Shown here piece after piece: positions 21,001 through 27,000 of a stretch of 41,280 nucleotides of DNA. The number at the start of each line of letters is the position of its first letter. Positions within the stretch are counted from its first letter, which is position 1. Source of the stretch: an uncultured bacterium (GTDB lineage: Bacteria > Krumholzibacteriota > Krumholzibacteriia > WVZY01); assembly GCA_965372355.1 (NCBI GenBank), contig CBDVBZ010000012.1:1-41280 (forward strand), written 5' to 3'. A program made the position numbers.

Positions 21001-24000
21001 CTTTTCGTCGAGAAGCTTCTGGATCTCCTGGCCCAGCTGGTCGCGTTCGGAGAGCAGGGAGGCGAGGTCGTGTTTGCCGATGGCATTTCGCAGCGCAGTC
21101 TGCGCGGAGAGAACCACGGCCTGGTCGAAGTCCTGTACTTCCAGCACGGCTTTCTTGGCGTCCCAGACCATCCAGAAGGCGATGGCGTCGACCTTGACCG
21201 GCACGGTGTCCGCCGTGAGAGTGGTCTCTGCGCTAAAGTCGGTGACACGGATTCGCTGATCCACGAACTGTGCCACCTTGTCGACGACCGGGAACACCCA
21301 AAAGATTCCGGATTCGCGCAGCGCCTTGAACTTGCCAAAACGCAGCACGACCGACCGCTCCCATTGGTAGGCGATCTGGATCGACGGAGCGATGAGCGCG
21401 GCGGCGGCGATGGTGATCAAAAATACCTCGCTCTCCGGTCGGAGCGTGAGGTAGCCGACGAGGCCGCCGCCGGTTGCCATGATGACCACTGCCTCCCAGA
21501 CCTGGGTCAACCGGAAACAGCTGGCCAGCACCAATGCGGAGCCGAGAAAGACCAGCACTGCACTTATGCTGAACAAGCTGAGCATCAGATGAACGACGAG
21601 GCCGATGACGAAGATCGCAACGAGCACCAGCACGTTCAGCGGAGCGAACCGAAAATCGGCCCTCGCGCCGGCGGCAAACTTTTCCAGAGAGAGCGAAAGC
21701 ACCTTTTCAATCCCCGTAACTGTTGAGGTCGAGCTCATGACGACTCCTCCTTTCGCTGGCGCAGCCCATCCAGTACGTTCTCGAGTGTGAGTCCGTACGT
21801 GGAAGCGCGGGCCAGCAGATCAGTCAAAATTTGATCGAGCATCCGTTGCCTTTCGAGGCGATCGATATCTGGTTTGCGCGTGCTGACGAAGGTGCCCGAG
21901 CCCTGGTGTGTCTCGAGCACCCCCTGGATCTCCAGCTCTCGGTAGGCGCGGATGACCGTGTTCGGGTTTATGGAGAGGTCCACGGCGAGCTGACGGACCG
22001 TCGGTAACCGGTCACCGGGCTCCAGCGTGCCGCGGGCGATGGCGAACTTAACCTGTTCAAGTATTTGACGATACAGCGGGACACCACTCCGGGCATCGAT
22101 GGCGAATTCCACAAGCCCTCCTCGTATCGGTCAACTAGTACACTAAAGTACTAGTAGTATAGTACAATATTCCAAAGGTGTCAACCCCGGATTCAGATTT
22201 TTGTTCGGAAATCGGGGAGCCGCCCATACACTCGGTTCCACAACACCCGGAAAGGCATATGAACCCGACGTACTTCACGCCCGACAACATCCAGCAGAAG
22301 GCGAGGGAGCTGCAGCGACGGCTTCAGAGCGCCGTAGGTGATCGCGGACGCCCATTCGTGCCGGGCGAAGCGGCACTCCTTGTGATCGACATGCAGCGCT
22401 ACTTTGTCGAGCCCGGCTGCCACGCGTTTCTTCCCAGTGCCCCTGCCATCGTTCCTGGCGTCCATCGTCTAATCGCGCTTTTCGCCCAGTGTGGGCGACC
22501 GGTGTTTTTTACGCGGCATCTCAACACACCGCAGAACGCCGGGATGCTGGCACGTTGGTGGAGCGAGACCATCACAGAGAAAAGCGCCGAGAGCGAGATC
22601 ATTCCCGATTTCGATTTGGCGAAAGGCACGGTTGTCGAGAAGTGCCAGTACGATGCCTTTTATGGGACACAGCTCGAGGCCGATCTCGGGAACAACCGGG
22701 TCACGCAGCTCGTCGTCACAGGTGTCATGACCCATCTCTGTTGTGAAACCACGACTCGCTCCGCGTTTGTCAGGGGATTCGAAGTGTTTTTCACGATCGA
22801 CGGCACGGCGACGGTGAGCGAGGACTTTCACGTTGCCACACTCTTGAACCTCGCTCACGGCTTTGCCAGTCCCGTCCTCGTCGAGGACGTCGCGCAGTCA
22901 TTCGAGGAACGGTCGTGACCGGGGCAAAGACGCACGAGAGGGTTACCATTGTTGGCGGTGGTCCGGCGGGGATGGCAGCGGCCATACAGCTAAAACGTCA
23001 CGGCGTCGATGGCCTCTTGCTCGAGAGGGATGAGTTGGGGGGACTTTTGTGGAACGCCAAACGGGTGGAGAACTATCCGGGATTCCCGAATGGCATTTCG
23101 GGGCCAGCGCTGGTGGAACTTTTCAAGCGCCAGTTTCGCGGGTTCGACTGCAGGGTCTCGTTCGAGGAGTTGCGGACACTCGATAGAAGAAACGGCGTTT
23201 TCGAACTGGAGACCGGCGACCGGGCATTTTCCTCTGAAGTGGTCGTCCTTGCCACCGGTACACGGCCAAATCCTTTTCCGCCCTGTGTCGGGATGCAGAG
23301 CGACAGGGTCCTTTACGAGGTTCGTGCCCTGCTCGAGACGAGCGATGCCGTCGTGGCGATTATCGGAGCGGGAGACGCGGCCTTTGACTACGCGTTGAAC
23401 CTCGCCGCGCGCAATCGTGTTGTGATCCTCAATCACGGCGTGCGCACGCGATGTCTGCCTCTGCTTTTCGAGAGGGTGGCGGATGACCCCGCGATCGACT
23501 ACAGGGAGAACACCGTGGTGGGCCGTGTTGTAGAGAAACCCGAGGGCGGGTTGGTTCTCGAGGGCGAGTCGGAAGGAACGGCATTCGAAATGCGCGCGGA
23601 CTATCTCCTCTGTGCCGTCGGCAGGGAGCCAAGACAAACGCTGCTGTCTTCGTTTAGCGATAAAGAACGCGAAACGCTTGGGAAAGCGGGGCGACTTCAC
23701 GTTGTTGGAGACGTTAGAAATGAGAAGTTCAGACAGGTGGGTATCTCCGTCGGGGACGGTGTGCTCGCCGCAATGAAAATAGCCGCGCAACTGGGAGGCA
23801 ACAACAAGTGAAGATCGTAAGCTCCGCCGGACGCGAGGACATCGCCACTGTTTACGTCGCGGATTTCGGCAAGGGACGGATAGCCGAATTCGTGGAGTCC
23901 GTCCAGCCCCCGATACCGAGGGAAGAGAAGTGGGTGTTCGTAATATCGACACTTTTTGGGTGTCCGGTGGGTTGCCTCATGTGCGATGCGGGTAGCGGTT

Positions 24001-27000
24001 TTCGTGGAAAGCTATCGGCAGAGGAGATGTTCGGGCAGATCGATTTTCTGATCCGACAGCGCTTCCCGGATCGCAGGGTACCGATCCCCATGCTGAAGAT
24101 CCAGTTTGCGCGTATGGGCGAGCCGTCGTTGAACCCCGCGGTGCTCGATGTACTGGAAGATTTTTCCAATCGGTACGAAGCTCCCGGCTTTATGCCGAGT
24201 ATTTCTACGGTTGCCCCAAAGAACTCCGACGGCTTCTTTGACAGGCTGATCGAGCTGAAGAACAGGTACTACGCCGGTGGCAGATTTCAGCTCCAGTTCT
24301 CTCTCCATAGCACGGATGAGCAAACGAGAAACAGGCTGGTTCCCGTCAAGAAGTGGGGATTGGCCCAGATCGCCGAGTGCGGAGAGCGTTTCTACCGTGT
24401 GGGGGATCGAAAGATCACACTGAATTTTGCTCTCGCCAAGAATCTGGAGCTGGATCCCGATGTTCTCCTGCGTTACTTTGATCCTGGCAGTTTTCTCGTC
24501 AAAATGACCCCTCTCAACCCGACGTATCGGGCGAGGGAGCACGGTCTCGAATCCTACATTGATCCCGGGGCGGGCGAGCAAAGCTACGAGAAAGTAGAGG
24601 CGTTGAGAGCGGCGGGCTACGACGTCATCGTGAGCATCGGGGAACTCGAGGAGAACCAGATTGGGAGCAACTGCGGTCAGTACCTCCAGCGTCACCTCCA
24701 CGAGCCACAGAAGATCGGCGACGGCTACACGTACGATGTAAAGGAACAGTAGCCCCGGGTGCGGGGACGGCGAACGAGACCTGTTGAATGAACAGCCCGA
24801 TATGGTGTCGGGCTATTTTCTTTCGCTGAGCGTGCGCTCCATGATTGGGATCGTGGTCTTCTCGTGGTAGGTGGCGATGCGATTGATCTCTTGCATAATT
24901 GCGGAACGCTTCGCGCCGGTGAGGTGGTAGTGCATATCGACGATCTCGGCGCCGCGAACGCCCTCGCCACCGAGGAACGTACCGCCCATGGCAATCATGT
25001 AATCGGGCAGCGAGTCGATATTGTTTGCCGCCGCCCACATCCGGCACCAGCCACGGCTCGTGGCCGTGACATCGTAACCGCCGCCACCGAGAAGCAGTAG
25101 GTGTTTGGCGTATTCCCGAATGGATTTCATCACCGTTTCCATACCGTTGTTCGTCAGGTTGAGATTGGCCAGCGGATCCGAGCGGTGTGTGTCCGCACCG
25201 ATGATGGCCACGACCACGGTCGGTGCGAACAGCGTCACAGCCGGTGTGACGACCCGATTGAATACATTCTCGTAGGCATCGTCGTCTGTCTCTTCGGGCA
25301 GCGGAACATTGATCGTGAACCCCTTGCCGATGTCTTCGCCGATCTCCGTCTCGAACCCGCTCCACGGATAGAGCGTCTTGCCACTCTGGTGGAGTGAAAT
25401 GGTCAGGACGCGGTCGTCGCGGTAGTAGGCATCCTGCACACCGTTGCCGTGATGGGCGTCGATATCGATGTACGCCACCCGATAACCCCTTGCGAGAAAT
25501 TCATCGATCGCGACGATGGCGTCGTTGACATAGCAAAATCCTTCGGCGTGCGACCGGCTGGCATGGTGGAAGCCCCCAAGAGTGTTGAACACGACGTTGG
25601 CGTTTTCCTTGGTGATGAAATCGACGCCCGTGATCGTCGCCGACGAATACAGGAGCACATAGTCGAAGAGACCAGGAAAGATCGGGCAGTCCTCCGTGCC
25701 GAGGTTAAACTTTACAAAACGTTCCGGTATCGCGCCGAATTCGGCATCCTCCAGTGCGTCGATATACGCCGGTTCGTGTGATTCGATAAGGCGTTTCTTT
25801 GTGATTGCCTTTGGCTCCTCGACTCGCATCCAGGGCTCATCGAGATACCCTTCCTGCTGGATCAGTTTGAGTGTGCTTCGCGCGCGGCCCGGATCAAAGG
25901 GATGCTCGTCGCCGTACGTATAGTCGCCAAAGCGCCCCGAATAGATAATGATGCTGTCCTTCGGACGCTCGATGGCCTCCTTCGGAAACCGGAATGTGAA
26001 AACGCAGGTCCCGGAATCAAAGCTTCTCTCGGCGGTGGGCCATGCCCGCCGGAGCAGCGACATCGTGGCGGCGTTCTCGGGGATGACATCGGCGTAGACG
26101 CCGGCAAGCCCGCGCGCGTAGGCGACCCGGCCGAGGTAGTTGGCGAGGAATGTTCCGATGCCGTGGCCGCGGTAATCCTCGCGCACCACGATGTCGAACT
26201 CGCCCATGTTGTTGTTGGGGTCGTACGTGTAGCGCCCCTCGCCGACGATGAGAGGGTTTCGCCAGGGACCGACCAGGCCCACGATCGCCATGTCCTTGCT
26301 GTAGTCGATCGCGGCCTGGCGCTGCGCGGCCGCATCGGTCAGCGTCTTGATCGTTCCGTGATACCTCTGTCGTACTGTGTCACGGGAAAGCGAGTAGAAC
26401 ATTTTCTGCAGGCGGTGGGCGTCGGCGGGCTGGATCGGGCGAAACCGTACCTCGGTGCCGTCGCGAAAGATCTTTGTGAACTCGTACTGATGGGGATAAA
26501 CGCATCCCGCTTCGGGCGGGATGATCTGGTCGTCGGTGACGTATTTGAGCTTCTTCGCTTCGTCGAGCAGCTGATGACGAAATCTGGGGTGCGCAATCGA
26601 GATCAGCGCGATGGCACGTTCGCGTACGGGAAGCCCGCACAGGTTGACCACACCATACTCTGTCACGACATAGTCTACCTCGGCGCGGTTGAACGCGACG
26701 CCGCGGCCGAGGCTTATCGAAATGATGTTCGAGCGTCTGCCGTCCTCTGAAGTCGAGCGTAGCGCCAGAATCGTGAAGCCGTCTTTTGAATGTCTGGCGC
26801 CATCGATGAAGTCCATGCTGGTGGGCAGGCTCCGTTGGAGTGACCTCTGTGTGGTGTTCGAGCGCGCCATTCCCGTGAGCTCCATCTCTTCGACCGTATG
26901 GATCGACACCATGTGGTCGTTCTGGGCGATGATCCGTGGATTGCTCACCTCGTCGATGGGTAAGAGCTCGATGTGAGGATTGGTAGCGATTTCCTCGTAG

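Follow-up and report, generated by a model that had tools for sequence, protein, structure and literature searches.

Genes and signals at the locus

The DNA considered here is a 41,280-nt stretch (positions 1–41,280) of contig CBDVBZ010000012.1 from an uncultured bacterium of the Krumholzibacteriota, referred to below in its entirety as the window, and the subject of this account is a three-gene cassette within it that encodes an isochorismatase-type hydrolase, a flavoprotein and a short radical S-adenosylmethionine (SAM) enzyme resembling RlmN and Cfr. When the open reading frames (ORFs) of the window were listed and their products scanned against Pfam and NCBIfam, four genes were found at this locus: a gntR gene on the minus strand (dealt with further below), then the three cassette genes on the plus strand. 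The first of these three encodes an isochorismatase-family cysteine hydrolase (most likely 22259–22918; Pfam Isochorismatase, 1.9e-34), the second a thioredoxin-reductase-like FAD/NAD(P)H flavoprotein without a CxxC motif (22915–23811; Pyr_redox_2, 1.9e-21) and the third a short RlmN/Cfr-like radical SAM enzyme of 314 residues (23808–24752; Radical_SAM, 4.6e-4, with RlmN as the best match in NCBIfam). At both junctions, i.e. hydrolase/flavoprotein and flavoprotein/radical SAM, the start codon of one gene and the stop codon of the preceding one overlap by 4 nt in the sequence GTGA, just as an initial annotation of this DNA had described.

In the case of the hydrolase, the longest ORF runs from GTG 22178 and would give a protein of 246 residues. 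Orthologues have 221–222 residues, and their alignments start at residues 25–32 of this long ORF, which is why ATG 22259, giving a protein of 219 residues and having the sequence GGAAAGG 5 nt upstream, is favoured here as most likely being the correct start; the intergenic region between gntR and the cassette would then be some 146 bp in length. A purine-rich stretch resembling a Shine-Dalgarno sequence is found ahead of each of the favoured starts (ATG 22259, GTG 22915 and GTG 23808). Following the last gene, 42 nt past the radical SAM stop codon, there is a hairpin with a T-run resembling an intrinsic terminator (24794–24823, plus strand), also anticipated in the initial annotation; its GC-rich stem of 9 bp (24794–24814) is followed by ATTTTCTTTC, and the 78-nt tail that contains it has a predicted folding energy of -34.5 kcal/mol (z = -3.8).

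As to other signals, an Rfam scan of the window together with 11 related loci returned only tRNAs, with no leader element and no riboswitch, whether for preQ1 or otherwise. PADLOC gave zero matches, and a reading of the cassette as a defence system was dropped. No second rlmN gene is present within the window.

The radical SAM enzyme compared with RlmN and Cfr

The Pfam match of the radical SAM protein quoted above is weak, lying under the gathering score. Among the NCBIfam models the best is that for RlmN (TIGR00048), at 46.8 bits where 290 would be required, while the Cfr models reach 39–45 bits against cutoffs of 468–550, so that all of these fail, and NCBIfam contains no model for the protein's own family. 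When a profile of 58 orthologues was compared with E. coli RlmN using hhalign (E = 7e-8), residues 36–297 fell onto RlmN 109–363, with the CX3CX2C cysteines C52/C56/C59 in register with C125/C129/C132 of RlmN and C289 (within SNCGQY) in register with the methyl-carrying C355 (within AACGQL). The position of the resolving cysteine of RlmN, Cys118, is taken by Val45, and just 35 residues precede the matching part, so that the N-terminal accessory RNA-binding domain (RlmN residues 1–108) is missing save for a short beta-sheet remnant. Across 83 orthologues the invariant cysteines are C52, C56, C59 and C289, and no others.

An AlphaFold2 model of the protein (pLDDT 86.6) was compared with solved structures using Foldseek, and here the best matches were to an RlmN-like structure (6fz6; E = 4.5e-12, TM 0.67) and to Cfr (9p0p; 8.9e-8), with other radical SAM folds far behind (NosL and spore photoproduct lyase appearing as weak matches). 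What is shared with RlmN and Cfr therefore comprises the radical SAM core fold, the context of the CX3CX2C motif, the motifs MGEP, SxH and NP and the C-terminal Cys-Gly-Gln, although the overall identity is only 20–26%. RlmN and Cfr have as their targets A2503 of 23S rRNA and A37 of tRNA; no class A radical SAM methyl synthase is known apart from these two enzymes, both with RNA substrates and both needing two cysteines. A search of a plasmid collection returned nothing but true rlmN and cfr genes, with identities of 26–28%, and the query P0223 gave nothing.

The family carries the label “23S rRNA (adenine2503-C2)-methyltransferase” in JGI, which is contradicted by the failure of the tests for RlmN membership just described: judged by these comparisons the enzyme is not RlmN, and the label is a common mis-annotation. 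In this respect the initial annotation has stood up well, having already pointed out the cluster cysteines and the CGQ cysteine, the missing N-terminal domain and the missing equivalent of Cys118, and having argued that this is no housekeeping RlmN. Where it went astray was in calling the enzyme truncated, since what is found is an intact family of proteins of about 315 residues with 79 invariant alignment columns; the possibility that the gene is a truncated pseudogene was rejected in view of that same conservation.

The closest relatives outside the cassette family are other short RlmN-like enzymes. The radical SAM protein matches phrog_24834, a phage protein family with no assigned function, with E = 2.5e-29, and a protein of [Clostridium] innocuum (P0381) with E = 2e-35 in hhalign at 34% identity, so that in sequence terms it is much closer to this set than to RlmN. 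The phrog_24834/gut-Firmicutes clade has in common with the cassette enzyme its length class, the motifs ARMGEP, QFS.[HN].TD and a C-terminal CG[NQ], as well as the lack of the N-terminal domain and of Cys118; it differs in that its genes stand alone, in tRNA arrays or in RNA-repair or anti-defence regions, without the cassette partners. A number of further observations concern this sister clade. The C. innocuum locus resembles a prophage tRNA island carrying its own RlmN-like enzyme. A large cluster (P0232/P0286, 2049 members) comprises short RlmN-like genes on phage-like contigs of 50–130 kb (L092–L095), which match phrog_24834 and near which there are also DNA methyltransferase genes; members of this cluster may have a function in tRNA protection or counter-defence on behalf of the phage. 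Two domain fusions were also seen in the clade, one (P0308) joining the radical SAM domain to a C-terminal PNP_UDP_1 domain of the MTA/SAH-nucleosidase type, the other (P0225) joining it to a membrane domain that resembles QueT (a match of 30 bits, just under the Pfam cutoff).

The flavoprotein and the hydrolase

Both Pyr_redox_2 and Pyr_redox_3 exceed their Pfam cutoffs for the flavoprotein, and its nearest solved relatives are low-molecular-weight thioredoxin reductases (approximately 1e-21), with which it shares the two-Rossmann FAD/NAD(P)H architecture and the motifs GGLL.NA..VENYPGF and G.GDAA.DYAL; similarity to ferredoxin-NADP+ reductases of the thioredoxin reductase type is weaker (1e-8 to 1e-10). 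The dinucleotide-binding motifs G.GP.G and G.GDAA are kept among the orthologues. However, the thioredoxin reductase model TIGR01292 reaches 137 bits, short of its cutoff of 343, and the redox-active CxxC is not present; where E. coli thioredoxin reductase has CATCDG the flavoprotein has RVLYEV (a comparison made by hand), and among 79 orthologues there is no invariant cysteine at all. Having neither a CxxC motif nor any invariant Cys, it cannot be a thioredoxin reductase, and looks instead like an NAD(P)H:acceptor oxidoreductase for which the acceptor must be external.

The hydrolase matches Isochorismatase (PF00857) over the full length of the domain with 119.7 bits, the cutoff being 27 (E-value as above). 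Among solved structures it comes closest to EntB (2fq1; 2.3e-17), which it matches from end to end, and to a cysteine hydrolase (6xix; 1.4e-17); all NCBIfam equivalog models fall far under their cutoffs. Among 62 orthologues D71, K155 and C188 (in the numbering of the 246-residue ORF) are invariant or nearly so, and from what is known of isochorismatase-like enzymes we take them to be the Asp-Lys-Cys triad of the family. C189 is likewise invariant, creating a vicinal Cys-Cys pair. The domain itself and the positions of Asp, Lys and Cys are features held in common with EntB/PhzD, CSHase, RutB, PncA and biuret hydrolase, and the motif AALL.(I/H)DMQ.YF together with the active-site region is presumably shared with EntB. 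EntB and PhzD are not known to have the Cys nucleophile, whereas the cassette hydrolase keeps it; what sets the latter apart both from EntB/PhzD and from the cysteine amidohydrolases is the invariant Cys-Cys together with the WW and sHA..PS motifs. Substrates of the isochorismatase fold are known to be small molecules.

Conservation of the cassette

A protein search with the radical SAM sequence found more than 6600 homologues, nearly all of 312–320 residues, and a scan of GTDB, in which each species is represented by one genome, placed the family in at least 545 species. In the best 80 of these the radical SAM protein is 56–63% identical to that of the window, and it is from these 80 that the following list is drawn: Chloroflexota (Anaerolineae and Dehalococcoidia), Eisenbacteria, Zixibacteria, Fermentibacteria, Cloacimonadota, Acetothermia, Fraserbacteria, Hydrothermae and Thermodesulfobacteriota, together with the archaeal Thermoplasmatota and Heimdallarchaeota. 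Carriers of the cassette belong mostly to uncultured lineages, and nearly all of the genomes that stand for them here are metagenome-assembled; one complete genome with the cassette is CP070785.1.

Gene order was followed by running tblastn with the window proteins against related loci. Of 78 loci that could be evaluated, 74 have a flavoprotein gene immediately ahead of the radical SAM gene and on the same strand, its stop codon overlapping the radical SAM start codon by 4 nt in 27 cases and by 1 nt in another 20. Ahead of the flavoprotein gene there is in turn a hydrolase gene in 59 of 67 evaluable loci. Natural fusions, looked for among 50%-identity cluster representatives of the radical SAM homologues, were found in both possible pairings of the radical SAM domain, with the flavoprotein in three clusters (P0124, P0152 and P0184) and with the hydrolase in five (P0149, P0156, P0159, P0163 and P0180). 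In the second group the order of the domains differs from that of the genes in the operon, so that annotation read-through cannot account for these fusions. The partners are still found together at identities as low as roughly 40%, as seen for a flavoprotein–radical SAM fusion that has a hydrolase gene ahead of it (L098).

Judged from gene order and sequence, then, the cassette is a real and widely conserved three-gene module that appears to have spread horizontally, and its core is an obligate pair of flavoprotein and radical SAM enzyme, usually translationally coupled and sometimes fused. This pairing, usually with the hydrolase as well, is a further respect in which the enzyme differs from RlmN and Cfr. 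The initial annotation had named two findings as fatal to its own reading, namely that the radical SAM protein align with RlmN over its full length including both cysteines, and that the three genes fail to be conserved together in relatives; both were looked for, and in each case the opposite was found, co-conservation extending across phyla. In the searchable literature no description of the cassette was found, nor any publication that relevantly joins radical SAM and isochorismatase with RlmN or thioredoxin reductase.

No further conserved partner emerged either from all-against-all clustering of the flanking ORFs or from Pfam scans of 209 neighbours, no Pfam family occurring in more than 5 of the 102–107 flanking proteins scanned on each side. 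Recurrent neighbours were nevertheless noted at a few loci: XdhC at four or five (directly downstream in L058, L065, L072 and L074), a MobA-like transferase at seven (L001, L011, L012, L026, L029, L034 and L035), an adenosine deaminase family protein at five (L043, L046, L076, L079 and L083) and a phosphoribosyltransferase at one (L098, 524–1075). The XdhC, MobA-like and adenosine deaminase family genes, and also PheT, belong to lineage-specific synteny blocks. Taken together, such molybdenum-cofactor and purine-type neighbours might point, if only faintly, to the metabolism of N-heterocycles, but probably reflect lineage synteny.

The divergent regulator and its palindrome

The minus-strand gene at 21735–22112 encodes a GntR-family regulator of 125 residues (Pfam GntR, PF00392, 2.1e-18, covering residues 13–76; best NCBIfam matches of the Rv1152 and PmtR types). 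In the intergenic region that it shares with the cassette there is a palindrome, ACTAGTAC-N6-GTACTAGT (22134–22155), which, being a perfect 8+8 repeat, proved longer than the initial annotation had claimed. It occurs once in the window, where 0.03 copies would be expected even if two mismatches were allowed. An N-terminal winged helix, a short C-terminal tail and a palindrome at its own promoter are all features of a YtrA-like GntR protein, and the palindrome is accordingly regarded as a putative operator. The sole strong sigma-70-like promoter between 21600 and 25000 is on the minus strand (TTGACA-17-TATACT, 22156–22184, 11 of 12 matches) and reads into gntR, the palindrome starting at the very next base after its -10 element. 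Downstream, gntR overlaps by ATGA the start of a gene for an SPFH/Band-7 (HflK-like) membrane protein of 383 residues with a long N-terminal hydrophobic region (20587–21738, minus strand), the pair having the appearance of an operon of YtrA-type regulator and membrane protein whose promoter and operator lie between gntR and the cassette.

Because the palindrome directly follows the -10 element of the gntR promoter, autoregulation of gntR and the SPFH gene is the better supported arrangement, and most likely the GntR protein acts through the palindrome upon this operon; it may in addition co-repress the divergent cassette, in this organism only. The initial annotation had described the cassette as “GntR-guarded” and had proposed the palindrome as a marker for a GntR regulon, and neither description holds more widely. 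In none of 82 related loci does a GntR homologue adjoin the cassette, the one match (L077) lying upstream of the hydrolase gene at a distance of over 1.4 kb, and the exact palindrome was returned from 120 loci in metagenome contigs of which none encodes a related GntR, SPFH or cassette protein. The palindrome is not a portable operator signature, and by the evidence of these loci the regulator is a local neighbour that lies outside the conserved module.

It is at this point that one may consider whether the cassette is simply a GntR-controlled operon for tailoring a secondary metabolite, specific to this organism. The divergent gntR gene and the perfect palindrome in the shared intergenic region are what would suggest this, but quite apart from the absence of an adjacent GntR in related loci there are no conserved biosynthetic core genes near the cassette, which occurs in more than 10 phyla at about 60% identity, while the palindrome overlaps the gntR promoter and is unlinked to GntR or the cassette in its metagenomic occurrences. 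Such an operon is therefore highly improbable, and can be considered essentially excluded. As to the broader role in small-molecule tailoring that the initial annotation suggested, this may still be inferred, and it is taken up next.

Proposed function

The interpretation that we favour, tentatively and as something a little short of an even chance, is that the cassette constitutes a self-contained module of three enzymes in which the flavoprotein is the dedicated electron donor and the substrate is probably a small molecule. The flavoprotein would draw electrons from NAD(P)H and hand them to its radical SAM partner, where they would either reduce the cluster or serve as the two electrons for which RlmN depends on its Cys118–Cys355 pair. 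The radical SAM enzyme would then transfer a methyl(ene) group or a radical to an sp2 carbon of the substrate, more likely a small molecule (nucleobase-like or nucleotide-like) than rRNA, and the hydrolase would make or consume this same substrate by hydrolysing an amide or related bond. There is precedent for flavoproteins that feed radical SAM enzymes, in the flavodoxin/flavodoxin reductase system of E. coli and in the flavodoxin domain fused to TYW1 in eukaryotes.

A more specific version of the chemistry can also be envisaged, by analogy with known enzymes, although it must be considered doubtful; it would amount to a third line of class A chemistry beside RlmN and Cfr. In this version Cys289 would be self-methylated, the resulting methylene radical would add to an sp2 carbon of a purine-like small molecule, and the covalent thioether so formed between enzyme and substrate would be resolved by two electrons, as hydride, from the flavoprotein, the flavin standing in for Cys118 much as flavins serve in the reduction of methylene groups by ThyX and TrmFO. 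Were this so, one could understand why the resolving cysteine has gone and why the enzyme is obligately coupled or fused to a protein that is like thioredoxin reductase but has no disulfide.

There are several points that weigh against a small-molecule module of three enzymes. No mechanism is established in which electrons pass directly from a flavoprotein of the thioredoxin reductase type to the cluster of a radical SAM enzyme. In 8 of the 67 evaluable loci there is just the flavoprotein–radical SAM pair, with no hydrolase gene near, and in two of the three radical SAM–hydrolase fusions that were inspected the nucleophilic Cys has been lost from the hydrolase domain, so that hydrolysis by way of a Cys thioester may not be essential. 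There are also the surroundings of the short relatives: the C. innocuum gene (P0381; L219–L221, 244–6284) lies within a tRNA gene array of more than 20 members and beside the gene for the RNA-repair nucleotidyltransferase RlaP, while the relatives on phage contigs sit among genes for Tad2-like, Gad1, RNA ligase and KTI12-like kinase proteins. Since enzymes that are equally short are thus found in tRNA arrays, lack of the N-terminal domain does not of itself exclude an RNA substrate, and going by these gene neighbourhoods short RlmN-like enzymes may still act on tRNA.

This leads directly to an alternative in which the cassette enzyme modifies RNA, at C2 or C8 of adenine in tRNA or rRNA or in some related way, with the flavoprotein as reductant and the hydrolase trimming or preparing the modified base. 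It would account naturally for the retention of the RlmN/Cfr core and the methyl-carrying cysteine, and for the company kept by the nearest clade of equally short enzymes (one relative of this kind adjoins a tRNA gene), while the fusion to a domain of the MTA/SAH-nucleosidase type is as expected if SAH and 5'-deoxyadenosine are both formed. Set against this are the missing RNA-binding domain and Cys118, the acidic character of the family (median pI 5.7), the occurrence of a tRNA gene within about 11 kb of the cassette at just 1 of 82 loci, the tight coupling to a hydrolase whose fold is one for small molecules, and a distribution that is patchy and seemingly the outcome of horizontal transfer, rather than universal. 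On balance we regard a role in RNA modification as unlikely, if by no means negligible.

A different kind of alternative retains the small substrate and dispenses with methylation. The background case here is the queuine lyase QueL of C. difficile, a radical SAM enzyme that acts on a free modified purine base; its gene belongs to the salvage operon queK-qrtT-queL, which also encodes a transporter of the QueT type (PMC11570991, PMC11477304). By similar logic the cassette enzyme might be a radical lyase or reductase for the salvage or breakdown of purines or 7-deazapurines, with Cys289 as a hydrogen-atom donor that the flavoprotein re-reduces. The resemblance to QueL (C. difficile CD1684) goes by description only, consisting in the radical SAM assignment and in the QueT-like fusion of a relative (the sub-threshold match in P0225), and no NCBIfam model matching QueL was found. 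Also in keeping with a lyase are the scattered XdhC, MobA-like, adenosine deaminase family and phosphoribosyltransferase neighbours and the fact that the folds next in line after RlmN and Cfr are those of lyases, weak as those matches are. However, the purine-type neighbours represent lineage-restricted synteny and not a general association; the cassette, unlike the QueL operon, has no riboswitch (for preQ1 or any other ligand), transporter or nucleoside hydrolase; its Cys-Gly motif is the one that in RlmN carries the methyl group; and those Firmicutes relatives that were inspected lie in tRNA arrays, not in queK/queT operons. A non-methylating lyase or reductase is, in our estimation, decidedly unlikely.

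Other genes in the window

Elsewhere in the window there are several genes that are of interest in their own right. Immediately beyond the cassette, a single ORF of 1008 residues (24813–27839, minus strand) combines an acetyl-CoA hydrolase/CoA-transferase domain (residues 6–432), a GNAT domain (approximately 460–600) and a domain of the histone deacetylase type (646–937), thereby bringing acetyl-CoA handling, acetyltransferase and deacetylase together in one chain; a homologue of its first 620 residues, at 36% identity, is found about 3 kb from the cassette in a member of the Eisenbacteria (L051). A 551-residue ORF (13855–15510, minus strand) matches the family of thiol-activated (cholesterol-dependent) cytolysins (Pfam, 1e-40), a surprising find given that the cassette genes on this contig have their closest counterparts in uncultured Chloroflexota. 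Lastly, an ORF of 1608 residues (8113–12939, plus strand) has an AMP-binding (adenylating) enzyme at its N-terminus and a GNAT domain at its C-terminus, with some 800 residues between them that received no assignment.

Significance

What the family represents, returning to the small-molecule module that we favour, is a large group of enzymes, spread over several hundred species in many bacterial phyla and two archaeal lineages, that has kept one of the two cysteines, dropped the RNA-binding domain and become locked to a flavoprotein and a hydrolase. This is more general than what could be seen from sequence alone. The enzyme is a class-A-like radical SAM protein that comes with a flavoprotein of its own. 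The module is compact, having three genes and no other partners, which makes it directly testable by co-expression. If the enzyme is active, then either class A chemistry reaches substrates that are new to it, or its catalytic cycle is completed in a new way.

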